Below, piece by piece: positions 8,625 to 58,857 of a DNA stretch of 64,000 bases. The notes beneath the pieces were generated by a model. That model did not search any database. It was not told the DNA's origin and worked only from the letters and a program-made list of their open reading frames with translations. The stretch covers positions 1,876 to 65,875 of the forward strand of contig CALVSY010000006.1 of NCBI GenBank assembly GCA_944359725.1, given 5' to 3'. A program made the position numbers and the translations under genes. Origin of the DNA: an uncultured Bacilli bacterium. Its GTDB lineage: Bacteria > Bacillota_I > Bacilli_A > RF39 > UBA660. Within the stretch, counting starts at the first letter, position 1. Each line of letters opens with the position of its first letter.

Positions 8625-8900
8625 TAAAAAACCTCTTAGAACTTTATTTGTTCTAAGAGGTGAATATATCACGTTACCACTCTTTTTTATTAATGCATTA
8701 CTACATTAACCTTACTAACCTACTTATGTCTTAGCATAGTTATAGGTCTGTGCTATAACAGGCACACCTGTAGTAACTTACTTACATTTCAGTTACTCAC
8801 CTTAAGGTCCATGTTCGAAAAATTACTATATCCTCCCTCTCACCTAACGGAGTTCTCTTTAATACTTTAATTTTTCTACTCTTCCTATCAATGGCTTTGT
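8625..8900 (-). promoter_or_regulatory. T-box riboswitch, Met (AUG specifier)
   Basis: AGAGA/GGTGA stem I, GAAC-AUG specifier (8812-8810), T-box AAGAGTGGTAACGTG, terminator ACCTCTTAGAAC..GTTCTAAGAGGT-TTTT; TTGACA-17-TATATT promoter upstream. Confidence 0.9.
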
Positions 8901-10257: not shown

Positions 10258-10465
10258 AATAAAAAACGAGCAAACATCCAAAAGGACGAATTGCTCGTGG
10301 TACCACCTTTATTTGTAATAATAGCTTATTACCTCTTACCTATAACGGGATTATCCGATTTAAAATCATCATTTGTAATTCATTATTTTAATTGTACTTG
10401 TTTTCACCAGCCACAAGTTCTCTTTAAAACATTATAAAATAATTACTTCGAGTGAATCGCTTTTT
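10258..10465 (-). promoter_or_regulatory. T-box riboswitch, Tyr (UAC specifier)
   Basis: GAAU-UAC specifier (10377-10375), T-box AAAGGTGGTACCACG, terminator ACGAGCAA..TTGCTCGT-TTTTT. Confidence 0.9.
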
Positions 10466-10510
10466 AATTAACTTATACAAAGTTTAACATTATTTATAAT
10501 AGTTGTCAAA

Positions 10511-12937: not shown

Positions 12938-13165
12938 TAAAAAAAGTTCATCCTAATCAAAGGATGAACTTAAAGTCCACGGTACCACCTTAATTCATAT
13001 TATTTTATAATATGCAACTTGATACTTTAACGCAGTAATACGTAATTTCCTACTAATAGTTCAGAAAAAAATGCTCCCAAGCTACCTTCAATTACCTTTT
13101 ATGCAAATTCACACCAACCACTTGCTCTCTTTAATAAATTAATAATTTACTCCTCTTGTTCCCAG
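12938..13165 (-). promoter_or_regulatory. T-box riboswitch, Val (GUA specifier)
   Basis: GAAG-GUA specifier (13085-13083), T-box AATTAAGGTGGTACCGTG, terminator AAGTTCATCCT..AGGATGAACTT-TTTTT. Confidence 0.9.
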
Positions 13166-13239
13166 CAGATGTAAATATTATACCAATTTCTATTCATTTA
13201 TTCAAGAAAATTAAGTTGAATTTCAAAAAAAGATAAGTT

Positions 13240-53583: not shown

Positions 53584-54279
53584 TTACTTAACCTCGAAGT
53601 AATCACCATAGTCCAAATATAACGTACCATTTTGCTTACCTATGTTTTCTAATATCGTGTTATACTTATTAATCTTAGAAAACTTATTAACCGTAAGATA
53701 AACACTGTTACCATCATTCATGTATAAATAATAACGATCGGCATCTATTTCATTCGGATCATACTTTATTTCTGATATTTGACACAAGATATCACTATTT
53801 ATTTTATCCATTGCTTTTAAAAACCTTTTTTTCTTATCCTTTGGAACCTCATTAGTTAGGTATGGAGCACAAACTATTTTATCATCACTTATTTCTCCAT
53901 CAGTAGTTACTTTATTACCAGTTTGTTTATCTATGTATAAAACCTTTTTTTCATCAATCGTTATTTTAACACTTAAAAGTCCCTTTGTTACCTTAGCGGT
54001 TTTAACATACGGATTTTTAAGAAGTTTATTTTTAATTTGAAAACTAAAAGTAGAAAAATAAGATGGATAATCCTCTAAATTCGCTTGTTCTATTACTTCT
54101 TGATCAGTTAAAACACTGTTACCTTTAATTATGATACTTCTTATTGGAACATCAACAAACTTTATAAATAAAAAACATATTAATGAAATAAAGATAATAA
54201 GCAAAAACAATCTTCCTACCCTAAGACGTCTTTTCTTTTTTGGTTTGGTATTTTTCATATTTCTACTCCCAATTAACAA
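53584..54279 (-). CDS. divIB: Cell division protein DivIB/FtsQ
   Basis: Basic N-terminus, TM, POTRA-like region, MNDGN.V; gene order. Confidence 0.8.
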   Translation of the reverse strand: MLIGSRNMKNTKPKKKRRLRVGRLFLLIIFISLICFLFIKFVDVPIRSIIIKGNSVLTDQEVIEQANLEDYPSYFSTFSFQIKNKLLKNPYVKTAKVTKGLLSVKITIDEKKVLYIDKQTGNKVTTDGEISDDKIVCAPYLTNEVPKDKKKRFLKAMDKINSDILCQISEIKYDPNEIDADRYYLYMNDGNSVYLTVNKFSKINKYNTILENIGKQNGTLYLDYGDYFEVK

Positions 54280-55177: not shown

Positions 55178-56258
55178 CTGCTAATTTTACTATTTCGTCA
55201 TAAATTCTAGAAGCACTACCTCTAACCTCAAAGCTTTTTAAATTTTCTTTTAATTTCTTAGTAAATATTCTATCATTTAGCACTTTTTCTACTAATCTTA
55301 AAAGTTCATCGCCTTCTAAATTTTTTTCTTCCAATATTAACGCTGCGTTTTTACAAGCCAAGTCCATTGCGTTTTTATACTGATGGTTTTCCGTTACGTA
55401 AGGACTAGGTATTAAAATAGAAGGTACGTTTAAAGATGATATTTCACTTAAGGTTGATGCTCCCGCTCTTGATACCAAACAATCCGTTTTTTTAAGAAGT
55501 GAGACCAAGTTGTTTATGTATGAAACTATTTTTATATTATTGGTATACTTCATCTTTTTAAATTCATCAAAATAATTCTTACCGGTTACGTATAATACCT
55601 CGTAATCTTTATTATTAAATAAAGTTAGCATTTTCTTCATTTTGTCACTTACCGTTTTAGAACCAAGCGATCCCATAACTATTAAAACGAGTTTTTTTCC
55701 ATCGGTTAATCCATAGTCTTTTTTATTTGCCTCTTTAGCTAAGTAAGCATCTTCGCTACACGGATTACCTGTATATATAACTTTTTTATCATTTATTTTT
55801 TCTTCTAGACTTTTAAATGATACAAATATTTTATCTGCGTACTTGCTTGCGAATTTATTAGTCATGCCAAAGATGGAGTTTTGCTCATGAATGCAGCATT
55901 TAACTCCTAATTTATGAGCAGCATAAATAACTGGTGCTGATACGTATCCACCGAAGGTTACAACAACGTCAGGTTTAAACTTTTTTATTATCTTTTTACA
56001 TTTAGATATAGCCGCTAAAAATAAAAACGCACTTTTTATGTTTTTAGGACTTAAACTACGTTTTAAGCCTTCTACGTTTACCGCGGCGTATTTAAACCCC
56101 TCTTTAGGAACAATGTCTTTTTCCATTCTTTTAGTTGTTCCTATATAAAGGATATCGGATGCTTTATCTTTTTGCCTTATTTTCTTTGCAACGGCAAGTG
56201 CAGGATAAATATGTCCCCCTGTTCCACCGGCTGCTATAATAACTCTCATAAGTATCAC
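55152..56258 (-). CDS. murG: MurG GlcNAc transferase
   Basis: GGTGGHIYPA, GGYVS, HEQN, GSLGS, RAGA, HQ..NA. Confidence 0.96.
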   Translation of the reverse strand: MILMRVIIAAGGTGGHIYPALAVAKKIRQKDKASDILYIGTTKRMEKDIVPKEGFKYAAVNVEGLKRSLSPKNIKSAFLFLAAISKCKKIIKKFKPDVVVTFGGYVSAPVIYAAHKLGVKCCIHEQNSIFGMTNKFASKYADKIFVSFKSLEEKINDKKVIYTGNPCSEDAYLAKEANKKDYGLTDGKKLVLIVMGSLGSKTVSDKMKKMLTLFNNKDYEVLYVTGKNYFDEFKKMKYTNNIKIVSYINNLVSLLKKTDCLVSRAGASTLSEISSLNVPSILIPSPYVTENHQYKNAMDLACKNAALILEEKNLEGDELLRLVEKVLNDRIFTKKLKENLKSFEVRGSASRIYDEIVKLAGDKDARHS

Positions 56259-56331
56259 CTACTATATAATTATATCATAATTATATGTTTTTAAAATAAG
56301 AAAAAGAATGTCAGTTTACAGGCGTATAAAC

Positions 56332-56620
56332 AAAAAAAATAACAGTCCTGATAAAACCGTTACTTTTTTAGTTTTAGAATGAAAAATCACTTTGAACCTA
56401 AGCAAACCTCAAATCCAAATTTTAAATATTATCAGTATTTAATGTGACATCTTATTCCAATGAGTTTTCTTTCTCATTTACAATTGTAAAGCCTAGAGTT
56501 AAATAAGATTAGCTTTTTCGCTATTTTCGCTATCAAACTGCGATAGATTACAAATACATATAATCATTTAAAAAGAAATTGCTTTCTTTAATAAATATAT
56601 GATTTGTAATACCTCTAGGA
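56332..56620 (-). ncRNA. Candidate ~290-nt structured ncRNA of unrecognised class
   Basis: Own TTGACA-16-TGnTACAAT promoter, many stems, GCAA tetraloop, 8-bp pseudoknot, G-U pairs that work only on the minus strand, terminator with U8. Confidence 0.65.
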
Positions 56621-56695
56621 TAATTCAATTGTAACATATTATGTTATTTTGTCAATACATATTTTTAAAAAAGTTAAAAAATGGAAAATAAATCT

Positions 56696-57787
56696 TTAAT
56701 TTTCTATATGTCTTGATATGTTAAGGATTATTCCCATCTCTATTAAGGTAATTATTAAGCTACTTCCACCGTAGCTAAAAAATGGTAAAGTTACTCCTGT
56801 TACTGGTATTAAGCCTACTACAACCGCTAAATTTAAAAGTGTTTGAAAAGTAAGCTGAAATATTATTCCAAAACTTAAGAACTTGGCAAAATTATCAGGT
56901 GCTTTAATAGATATTTTTACGCTTCTTAATATTATTATTAAAAATAACGTAGCAACCGAAACTATTCCAATAATTCCAAGCTCTTCTGATATAATAGAAA
57001 AAATAAAATCAGTTTGAGGTTCTGGCAAATAAAAATGTTTTTGAATAGAATTACCAAAGCCCATTCCAAAAAGTCCACCGGGACCTATTGCAAAAAGTGA
57101 TTGTATCGCTTGAAATCCCGTACCCAAAGGATCACTCCAAGGATTTAAAAACGACACTATCCTTTCCATTCTATATGGAGCCGCAATAATTAAAAGACAA
57201 ACGCCAACCAAGCCAAGCATTCCTATTTTAATAAAAAACGAAAAGTTAACACCAGATATAAAAAGCATTCCAACAATCGTCATAACAAGGATCGTACCAG
57301 TTCCAAAGTCTGGTTGTAACATGATAAGAAAAAAAGCGAGCATAACAATGACTAATATTGGAAAAGCACCTTTTTTAACCGAGCGCATATCTTTAGGATT
57401 ATTATATATGTATTTACTAGTAAAAATAATGAGGCCTAGTTTCATGAACTCAGATGGCTGAATACCAAGCCCTCCTATTCCAAACCAACTACGAGAACCA
57501 TTCCTTACGCTTCCAATACCTGGTATTAAAACCAAAATTAAAAGAATAAAACAAATAAGTAAAATTAAATTAGATTTTTTCAAATAATAAGTATAAGGTA
57601 TTTTACTTACGATAAACATTAAAATTATGCCCACCAAAAAGAAGATACTTTGCATTATAACATAATGAAATTCATCATTAAATTTATATTCTGCCCAAAT
57701 GTTTGATGCTGAGTATATCATTATAATTCCATATATACAAATAATAAAAATAGTTATTATAAGCGGGGTGTCTATCTTCTTTTTCAT
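56696..57787 (-). CDS. spoVE: SEDS peptidoglycan glycosyltransferase SpoVE/FtsW
   Basis: NGSRSW...IQPSEFMK, YLPEPQTDFIF, SYGGSS; upstream of murG. Confidence 0.88.
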   Translation of the reverse strand: MKKKIDTPLIITIFIICIYGIIMIYSASNIWAEYKFNDEFHYVIMQSIFFLVGIILMFIVSKIPYTYYLKKSNLILLICFILLILVLIPGIGSVRNGSRSWFGIGGLGIQPSEFMKLGLIIFTSKYIYNNPKDMRSVKKGAFPILVIVMLAFFLIMLQPDFGTGTILVMTIVGMLFISGVNFSFFIKIGMLGLVGVCLLIIAAPYRMERIVSFLNPWSDPLGTGFQAIQSLFAIGPGGLFGMGFGNSIQKHFYLPEPQTDFIFSIISEELGIIGIVSVATLFLIIILRSVKISIKAPDNFAKFLSFGIIFQLTFQTLLNLAVVVGLIPVTGVTLPFFSYGGSSLIITLIEMGIILNISRHIEN

Positions 57788-57875: not shown

Positions 57876-58280
57876 TTATTTTTTTAGATCTATTTTTATT
57901 TCTTCTATAATATGTCCTATGTTGCCTTCACCAGCATACTTATTCATATTAAAAAAATCATCATTAACCGGTACCCACTCTAATTTATTTACCTCTTCAA
58001 CCAACTCGACATTCTTATTTAATATTCCATAATATACTTCTAATTCTTTATCCCATTTAACATATGATATATTCATAAAATGAATTAATTTAACATCACT
58101 TTTACCTATATTTGTTTCTTCTTTTAATTCTCTATAAGCCTCATTTAAGCCATCGTTTTCTTTTTCTATTTTACCACCGACTAGATTGTACATTCCTTTA
58201 TATGGTTCTTTGGCTCTTTTACACATTAAAACTTTATTCTTGTTTTTATCAAAAATAGCAATTACATTCATTTTCTTCAT
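57876..58280 (-). CDS. NUDIX hydrolase (MutT-like)
   Basis: GGKIE...AYRELKEET. Confidence 0.88.
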   Translation of the reverse strand: MKKMNVIAIFDKNKNKVLMCKRAKEPYKGMYNLVGGKIEKENDGLNEAYRELKEETNIGKSDVKLIHFMNISYVKWDKELEVYYGILNKNVELVEEVNKLEWVPVNDDFFNMNKYAGEGNIGHIIEEIKIDLKK

Positions 58281-58284
58281 ATTA

Positions 58285-58857
58285 TTACCTCTTTATACTA
58301 GCAGTTAAAACTAAATTATGGTAATTATTTTTATACTCATCTAAAACAGGAAGCATCTCATACGCAAGATCTTTAAAACTAGCATGAGTTCTTGCATGAT
58401 CTATTAGTAAGTCTTCAACGTTATCTATGTTAACAAAGCAAAGTTTAAATCCATTTTTTCTTTCATAATCACTTATGTTAGTTTCATCTATATTTATGTT
58501 TGGAATATTTTTATAAATAAAATAAATCATGATGTTTAATCTGTTATTACCAGTTCTAAAATAGTTTTTTTCATAATGTTTAGTTATCATAAAAGGATAA
58601 TAATCATCTTTTTTTGATTCTATTCCGGTTTCTTCTTTTACTTCTCTTATTAATCCAAAATAAGCATCTTCACCATCTTTTAAATGTCCCCCGGGAAACT
58701 GATAGTCATCATCACAATACGCGAGTAATATCTCGTTTTGCTCGTTTATCATTATCGCTTTTACTCTTGTTACGACTTCTTTTACATCTTCTTGTTTTAA
58801 ATTATCTTTATTTATTATTAACTCTTTCATAAAATGCCCCTTATCATCTTTATCCAT
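58285..58857 (-). CDS. NUDIX hydrolase
   Basis: FPGGHL..GE...REVKEETG. Confidence 0.88.
   Translation of the reverse strand: MDKDDKGHFMKELIINKDNLKQEDVKEVVTRVKAIMINEQNEILLAYCDDDYQFPGGHLKDGEDAYFGLIREVKEETGIESKKDDYYPFMITKHYEKNYFRTGNNRLNIMIYFIYKNIPNINIDETNISDYERKNGFKLCFVNIDNVEDLLIDHARTHASFKDLAYEMLPVLDEYKNNYHNLVLTASIKR

Follow-up and report, generated by a model that had tools for sequence, protein, structure and literature searches.

The minus strand of a 64,000-nucleotide stretch of DNA from an uncultured Bacilli bacterium (GenBank assembly GCA_944359725.1, contig CALVSY010000006.1, positions 1,876 to 65,875; here called the window) carries a conserved unit between a gene that scores as FtsW/SpoVE (56696-57787; TIGR02615 440.8 bits, TIGR02614 403.9 bits) and murG (TIGR01133, 301.5 bits). 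We consider it probable that positions 56332-56621 of this strand constitute a gene of about 290 nt for a stand-alone structured noncoding RNA, the full-length form of the Rfam family RF03040 (PGK RNA), rather than a leader of murG. An earlier inspection of the same DNA without database searches (the sequence-only reading) had described an unrecognised pseudoknotted RNA at this site. Every feature of this description lies where it had been placed. Its account of a real, strand-specific and pseudoknotted RNA, about 290 nt long and flanked by a promoter and a terminator of its own, held, but the novelty of the family did not, since the core of the unit belongs to RF03040. The unit is not a new class of element; it is a member of a known orphan family with a new anatomy.

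To identify the family, the window was compared with the Rfam covariance models (cmscan). Here, we found that the central 93 nt of the unit (56422-56514, minus strand) matched RF03040 with 88.3 bits, compared with a gathering score of 50.8. The match spans model positions 1-92 of 92 (E-values of 1.4e-10 in the window scan and 1.2e-12 in the region scan) and it is the sole one in this genome (1.21 Mb, 30 contigs). Between positions 56200 and 56760, no other Rfam model was better than E = 1 among the nine matches at E up to 10. The three consensus helices of the family (P1 of 6 bp, P2 of 5 bp and P3 of 7 bp) can form in the core, and the cmscan alignment marks no non-canonical pair. According to the model alignment, the conserved unpaired letters of the consensus (ACAAUUGU, GAGAAAGaAAACUC, AAAUACUGAUAAUAUU) are all present. 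In a cross-genus alignment of 93 sequences (A2), P1 was paired in 87.9%, P2 in 92.3% and P3 in 99.5%, and compensatory changes were seen in each of these helices. The sequence-only reading had named an Rfam hit as the finding that would remove the novelty. This is the outcome for the core (93 nt) at least, and the rest of the unit lies outside the model.

The name PGK stands for phosphoglycerate kinase, since 10 of the 54 genes downstream of the unit in other genera belong to the Pfam family PGK. A position upstream of such a gene, from which the name stems and which is no criterion of the model, is not seen here, where murG follows. The source of RF03040 is probably the comparative-genomics survey of Weinberg et al. 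from 2017 (Nucleic Acids Res 45:10811, PMC5737381), the main text of which lacks the word PGK. No paper discussing the PGK motif or RF03040 was found in our literature search; the original motif description, which possibly covers the flanking structure already, was outside that search.

RF03040 matches were present in 33 of 36 other genomes of the genus. Elsewhere in the class, 24 genomes that represent 23 genera had none. The order consists almost entirely of one family, whose genomes measure about 0.7-1.5 Mb; when sampled, it had a match in 28 of 151 genomes and in 16 of 86 genera. A covariance model of our own (R1), built from 105 cores, did not widen this distribution (26 of 151 genomes, versus 28 of 151 with the Rfam model in the same draw); for R1, RNAalifold gave just 8 pairs and left P1 out. 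A pattern scan of species-representative genomes yielded 97 stretches, mostly from metagenome-assembled genomes labelled uncultured Bacilli, Tenericutes or Mycoplasmatota; Clostridium sp. CAG:914 and Firmicutes bacterium CAG:884 were also among them.

The conserved unit extends far beyond the core. We aligned 30 fetched loci of the genus, which represent 30 species (alignment A1), and the sequence from the promoter to the terminator (TTGAC[AT] to the U-tract, about 290 nt) could be aligned in all of them. RNAalifold predicted 71 pairs for this alignment, 43 of them with compensatory change. When the pseudoknotted elements (P1, a loop-loop match and a GAAAA/UUUUC helix) were added, the structure comprised 88 pairs, 97.3% of the cells were paired and 44 pairs were changed on both sides. 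In the controls, only 42-49% of the cells were paired once the partners had been slid, and 0 of 500 shuffles reached any of the measures. Kinship among the sequences inflates such shuffle tests, but the slid controls and the counts for individual helices agree with them. The covariation among homologues, which the sequence-only reading had proposed as a check of the structure, is thus present. The 295-nt stretch itself has a minimum-free-energy fold of -74.9 kcal/mol (z = -6.14), and 0 of 200 shuffles folded as well. RF03040 covers about a third of the conserved unit (a 92-nt model versus about 290 nt). Taken together, the comparative data suggest that the catalogued 92 nt form only the central part of a larger RNA that is transcribed independently.

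The very 5' end of the predicted RNA takes part in this structure. It carries the strand CCUAGAG (56613-56619), which pairs with CUCUAGG (56492-56498) to form a helix that we call P0 and that had been noticed before as the closing helix of the RNA. The 3' strand of P0 lies in a stretch which is drawn unpaired in the Rfam consensus, between P1 and a palindromic hairpin. In A1, P0 was paired in 100% and 3 of its 6 pairs were changed on both sides. P1 is formed by AUCUUAUU (56502-56509) and AAUAAGAU (56456-56449). It is unvarying within the genus, and across genera 6 of 8 pairs were changed on both sides (e.g., CG 59 / UA 31). P0 crosses P1 and therefore the topology is that of a pseudoknot; the pseudoknot helix of the sequence-only reading is real in this sense and is identical with P1 of Rfam. 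As judged from these pairings, P0 makes the predicted 5' end of the RNA an integral part of the core.

A similar arrangement was observed in other genera. Among 88 units with a promoter-like site, the best complement to the P0 strand of the core begins 3-9 nt past the -10 box in 82, and a complement of at least 7 bp within 28 nt after the -10 box was present in 73 of these 88 units, compared with 135 of 499 windows that were drawn from these 5' domains as controls. We counted 48 distinct pairs of P0 strands, such as UUACUUAGU/GCUAAGUAA, UUGUCUAGU/GCUAGACAA and AUCUCGGU/GCCGAGAU. The latter pair is typical of a divergent subgroup of loci (L055, L057, L073, L110, L122), with ACCGAGAU in L110. 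In this subgroup, a hairpin of the type GCUG...CAGC takes the place of the palindromic hairpin, no terminator with a UUAUCAG loop was found and the adjoining genes are on the opposite strand.

The second contact that is missing from the Rfam consensus structure, besides P0, connects P3 with the terminator. The P3 hairpin (56422-56442, 5 of 7 pairs changed on both sides in A2) carries the loop CUGAUAA (56435-56429), and this loop is complementary to the loop UUAUCAG (56354-56348) of the terminator hairpin (56340-56369), which is followed by a U8 tract (56332-56339). When we compared the P3 loop with the apex of the first terminator-like hairpin downstream, a complementarity of at least 6 bp was observed in 102 of 116 distinct units. 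The 14 exceptions involve either a wrong first hairpin (L077, L090) or the divergent subgroup just described. In A2, for which the sequences had been collected with regular expressions that permitted mismatched loop combinations, all seven loop-loop pairs are formed in 93 of 93 sequences, and one of these pairs varies without any mismatch (UA 90 / CG 3). The three variants with C:G instead of U:A (L143 and two copies in L132) come from two genera. A contact between the P3 loop and the terminator loop is therefore likely. The stem of the terminator, which the sequence-only reading had recognised together with its U8, was paired in 99.7% of A1. Both sides had changed in 9 of its 13 pairs in A1 and in 9 of 11 pairs in A2.

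The remaining helices are also well supported. The long hairpin of the 5' domain (56547-56610), which is capped by GCAA in this species, had 89.6% paired cells in its outer stem, and 8 of 8 pairs were changed on both sides in A1. It is followed by the hairpins CUAUC/GAUAG (56530-56546; 89.4% paired, 6 of 6 pairs changed on both sides) and UAGC/GCUA (56510-56523; 3 of 4 pairs changed on both sides, e.g., UA 17, CG 11). All three had been proposed in the sequence-only reading and all are part of the minimum-free-energy fold. The P2 hairpin AUGAG-AAAGAAAA-CUCAU (56460-56477) is found in the Rfam alignment, in A1 and in A2. In the 3' domain, UUUGGAUUUGAG (56419-56408) pairs with CUUAGGUUCAAA (56402-56391) in a hairpin of the minimum-free-energy fold (8 of 10 pairs changed on both sides in A1), and its G-U pairs would be mismatches if the plus strand were read, as had been pointed out before. 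A long-range helix between GUCAC (56444-56448) and GUGAU (56386-56390) encloses P3 and this 3' hairpin. It was paired in 100% of A1 (2 of 5 pairs changed on both sides) and in 80% of A2 (5 of 5 pairs), and these alignments show it as the closing stem of a predicted three-way junction that holds the two hairpins. Weaker support was obtained for a candidate helix between GAAAA (56524-56528) and UUUUC (56381-56385), with 99.3% pairing and 1 of 5 pairs changed on both sides in A1 and 70% pairing in A2 (outer pair AU 32 / GC 31). Directly before the terminator, the motif AAACU(A/C)(A/G)A (56364-56375, minus strand) is kept across genera and resembles the 3' half of P2 (AAAACUC). No pairing partner was found for this motif, and a candidate AGUUU/AAACU contact with the loop of the CUAUC hairpin was dropped because this loop is not conserved.

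Between P1 and P2, the RNA carries the 12-nt palindrome UUACAAUUGUAA (56478-56489), which forms a 4-bp hairpin with the self-complementary loop AAUU and is unvarying within the genus. At this position, a self-complementary stretch of at least 8 nt was found in 106 of 116 units versus 40% of shuffles, in A+U-rich sequence and with a tally of longest palindromes that is circular as to the centre. The central four letters vary between AAUU, UAUA, AUAU and ACGU, with UAUG and UGUA as wobble forms; a tetraloop that is palindromic by Watson-Crick pairing occurs in 9.2% of random hairpins, and the tally of best hairpins is confused by alternative registers. This pattern may be taken as a hint of self-association.

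The signals for transcription agree with an independent gene. The promoter of the sequence-only reading (56655-56628, minus strand) was recovered with its -35 box TTGACA (56655-56650), a 16-nt spacer and the extended -10 box TGnTACAAT (56636-56628), and it scores 11/12 plus TG in our consensus scan. All 30 genus loci keep TTGAC[AT] at the corresponding position, and a promoter-like site is present upstream of 88 of 99 distinct units across genera. The transcript should start at CCUAGAG or just before it, and the predicted RNA of about 290 nt (56332-56621) would begin 7 nt after the -10 box and end in the U-tract. Past the terminator, the extended -10 box of murG itself, TGATATAAT (56269-56277), was confirmed outside the RNA, which bears on the independence of the latter. 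No open reading frame (ORF) of at least 30 amino acids lies within the unit and seven ORFs of 20-29 amino acids overlap it; the hairpin-type covariation and the indels argue against coding by these small ORFs.

Most of the unit is covered by contigs that stem from libraries of four studies. Three of these libraries are recorded as metatranscriptomic (gut, chicken gut), and one (bird), which provided the contig X1, was guessed to be an RNA library. X1 is a 244-nt contig that corresponds to positions 56363-56606 with 2 differences. The contigs X3 (238 nt, word depth 47.5), X7 (246 nt) and X12 (158 nt) represent the versions of relatives, and X3 and X7 cover positions 56373-56574. No contig was found over ftsW/spoVE, murG, 56200-56362 or 56607-56800, but in Logan contigs absence of cover is not evidence.

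From these data, the following mechanism can be envisaged. Transcription would start from the near-consensus promoter at or just before CCUAGAG, and the first bases of the RNA would pair with the core stretch between P1 and the palindromic hairpin, so that P0 crosses P1. The terminator loop would then pair with the P3 loop, by which the terminator hairpin would join the fold. Since the core has a conserved partner in the terminator hairpin, the terminated RNA itself may be the functional product. Such a compact RNA might act in trans, either as scaffold or with a protein partner or as a self-associating RNA, and it would not be a switch for murG.

A number of observations weigh against this interpretation. 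Rfam types RF03040 as Cis-reg. In all 30 genus loci, the gene after the unit is co-oriented, as it would be for a leader and also with ordinary strand bias. The RNA is present in just 28 of 151 sampled genomes and does not serve a universal function. Promoter-like sites in the region are not in excess in the consensus scan (5 versus 5.8 ± 2.1 in shuffles). A simple terminator scan of the region reported no site because it requires 3 G-C pairs; the terminator was instead established through fold and covariation. The Logan contigs give presence in RNA libraries and not ends, strand or abundance, and the covariation of the loop-loop contact comes from 3 of 93 sequences. Action in trans is our inference from the context.

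Part of these observations can be accommodated by a cis-acting leader or attenuator that senses a ligand, a protein or a cellular state and sets the read-through into murG (or pgk), with the loop contact as part of the switch. Several features are compatible with such a function: the Rfam type, the co-oriented gene that follows the unit in all 30 genus loci, the pgk gene that follows it in 10 of 54 loci from other genera, and the terminator with which the unit closes, as many riboswitches do. However, the genes downstream are unrelated across genera. Although murG follows in 24 of 30 genus loci, the other six have a contig end, two EF-G/LepA-like GTPases, a GNAT-radical-SAM gene, an LRR protein and a protein without assigned kind. 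In other genera (n = 54), pgk (10), Fic (3), LPG synthase (3) and single others were found, and 30 of the genes had no Pfam family. In one locus (L061), the neighbour is a convergent VanY gene 167 nt past the core, and convergent YegS-like and HlyIII genes lie about 1 kb away in L055 and L073. The genes upstream are equally varied (ftsW, EF-P, Fe-hydrogenase, SpoIVA, GAPDH, fmt, def and others). Moreover, an extended -10 box (TGnTAnnAT) of the downstream gene lies within 160 nt past the terminator in 27 of 30 genus loci.

The arrangement of several copies and the behavior of the terminator also speak against a leader. Tandem units occur, each bearing its own promoter and terminator. Second copies, either in tandem or within about 1.2 kb in the same locus, were found in L037, L043, L060, L063/L064, L065, L077, L079, L103 and L104, and in L037 and L077 the terminator of the upstream unit is directly before the promoter of the next one. 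In L132 (G119:C2:34700-36500), three units of the PGK type are arranged head to tail about 440 nt apart; two of them are Rfam matches above threshold and the core of the third is visible in the sequence. Each of these three has a promoter-like site, a 5' strand and a terminator with a UGUCAG loop. The same locus carries an S-adenosylmethionine (SAM) riboswitch at L132:86-172 (minus strand). The terminator loop covaries as partner of the core and not as its competitor. When we searched the genus RNAs for an antiterminator, no candidate rose above chance: for either terminator arm, 1 of 30 RNAs had an upstream complement that was reached by at most 5 of 100 shuffles, in a search of ungapped runs that a bulged antiterminator could escape. 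The recurring upstream partner of the terminator arm is an A-run facing the U-rich arm. The comparative data thus fit a stand-alone RNA better than a murG leader, as the sequence-only reading had preferred. The anatomy extends the RF03040 entry and argues against its cis-regulatory label, and we regard the leader function as unlikely.

The unit also occurs next to the name-giving gene. In the genus in which the unit is linked to pgk (L039, L040, L081, L084, L088, L090, L092, L093), the RNA follows the same plan but is larger, and pgk has its own -10 box. As estimated by eye, the 5' domains of these units comprise about 200 nt, and roughly 150-400 nt belong to the 3' domains. At their 3' end, the units have AAACUCGA and a terminator with a UUUUAUCAG loop, and another hairpin and the -10 box precede pgk.

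A base-pairing small RNA (sRNA), for which the conserved loops CUGAUAA, UUAUCAG and AAAGAAAA would serve as seeds for mRNAs in trans, would have its own promoter and terminator as observed here, and the unvarying letters of these loops would fit as well. Tandem paralogues are known for several sRNA families and are also present in this family. In contrast, the two best-kept loops can pair with each other and vary together, and this speaks for an internal contact or an RNA-RNA self contact and not for an mRNA target. In addition, a length of 290 to more than 500 nt, more than 12 covarying helices and a pseudoknot represent far more structure than seed-type sRNAs need. We consider this alternative quite improbable. 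Conservation at the level of DNA, with the 12-bp palindrome TTACAATTGTAA (a perfect DNA palindrome) as a protein operator, or a mobile-element remnant, for which one might quote that the unit shifts place between genomes, is duplicated and has an IS605 OrfB-like fragment downstream in one locus (L074), is most improbable, since compensatory changes, G-U pairs on one strand and 44 of 88 covarying pairs are signals at the RNA level, since the palindrome changes its sequence and stays self-complementary, unlike an operator, and since no transposase or other gene travels with the unit (mobile-element genes in 1 of 54 downstream and 0 of 43 upstream positions). The fragment in L074 (1768-2220, plus strand; 151 amino acids, IS605 OrfB / Cas12f-like) is located just downstream of the unit and is the sole mobile-element gene among the 54.

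The identity with a housekeeping RNA was rejected. No model of 6S RNA, RNase P, signal recognition particle (SRP) RNA or transfer-messenger RNA (tmRNA) matched between 56200 and 56760, and each of these RNAs has a match of its own at another place in this genome (6S 73.8 bits, RNase P type B 285.4, small SRP 57.2, tmRNA 154.5). The statement of the sequence-only reading that hallmarks of RNase P, tmRNA, SRP, T-box and the common riboswitches are lacking is in line with the cmscan data, in which none of these models matched the region.

When compared with the RF03040 entry, the unit shares the core with P1, P2, P3 and the conserved loop letters, and its relatives are located upstream of pgk in 10 of 54 loci. 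However, the entry describes 92 nt with three helices, typed Cis-reg, whereas we found a unit of about 290 nt that has its own promoter and terminator, is followed by murG instead of pgk and includes additional elements (the 5'-end helix that creates the pseudoknot, the long-range helix and the loop-loop match with the terminator). Terminating riboswitches and leaders share with the unit a structured 5' element, an intrinsic terminator and a co-oriented gene. The window carries three T-box leaders of this kind on the minus strand (8653-8900, 10279-10469 and 12957-13172; 95.7, 100.5 and 140.2 bits, above the Rfam gathering score). In contrast to such leaders, the unit showed no antiterminator above chance in the search of ungapped runs, and the loop of its terminator is kept as a partner of the core. 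The genes that follow differ from genus to genus without being related and carry promoters of their own, and no riboswitch or T-box model matches.

With OLE, ROOL, GOLLD and raiA, the RNA has in common that it is stand-alone, highly structured and lineage-restricted and that its function is unknown or poorly known. It is much smaller than these RNAs, its host belongs to small-genome gut Bacilli and it is known from sequence alone. None of their models was among the nine matches at E up to 10 between 56200 and 56760. According to a preprint (bioRxiv 10.1101/2024.12.08.627333), conserved kissing loops and loops that switch between palindromic tetranucleotides mark intermolecular contacts in OLE, ROOL and GOLLD, and in OLE and GOLLD such switching served to recognise symmetric kissing loops between molecules. 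The variation of the palindromic loop before P2 (AAUU/UAUA/AUAU/ACGU) resembles the switching that the preprint describes. PGK RNA might assemble with itself: the palindromic loop would kiss symmetrically and the P3 and terminator loops would pair between molecules, so that a dimer or a closed ring might result. We consider this scenario unlikely. If it were true, PGK RNA would be an RNA-only assembly far smaller than OLE, ROOL and GOLLD, and it would originate from a gut bacterium with a reduced genome.

For future work on RF03040, the stable RNA, its partners and its oligomeric state appear to be more sensible targets than ligand screening on a 92-nt fragment, and our comparison supplies a better alignment for modeling the family. 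The host bacteria, uncultured Bacilli of the gut, have genomes that measure about 1.2 Mb, and at that size a well-conserved noncoding gene is likely to be useful to the cell.

Two other features of the division and cell wall (dcw) gene cluster around the unit may be mentioned. Directly after murB, at the position that divIB/ftsQ holds in Bacillus, a 231-amino acid ORF (53584-54279, minus strand) had no NCBIfam match. Between mraY and the ftsW/spoVE gene, where murD is usual in dcw clusters, we found two genes of the Nudix family (57876-58857, minus strand), which encode proteins of 134 and 190 amino acids.

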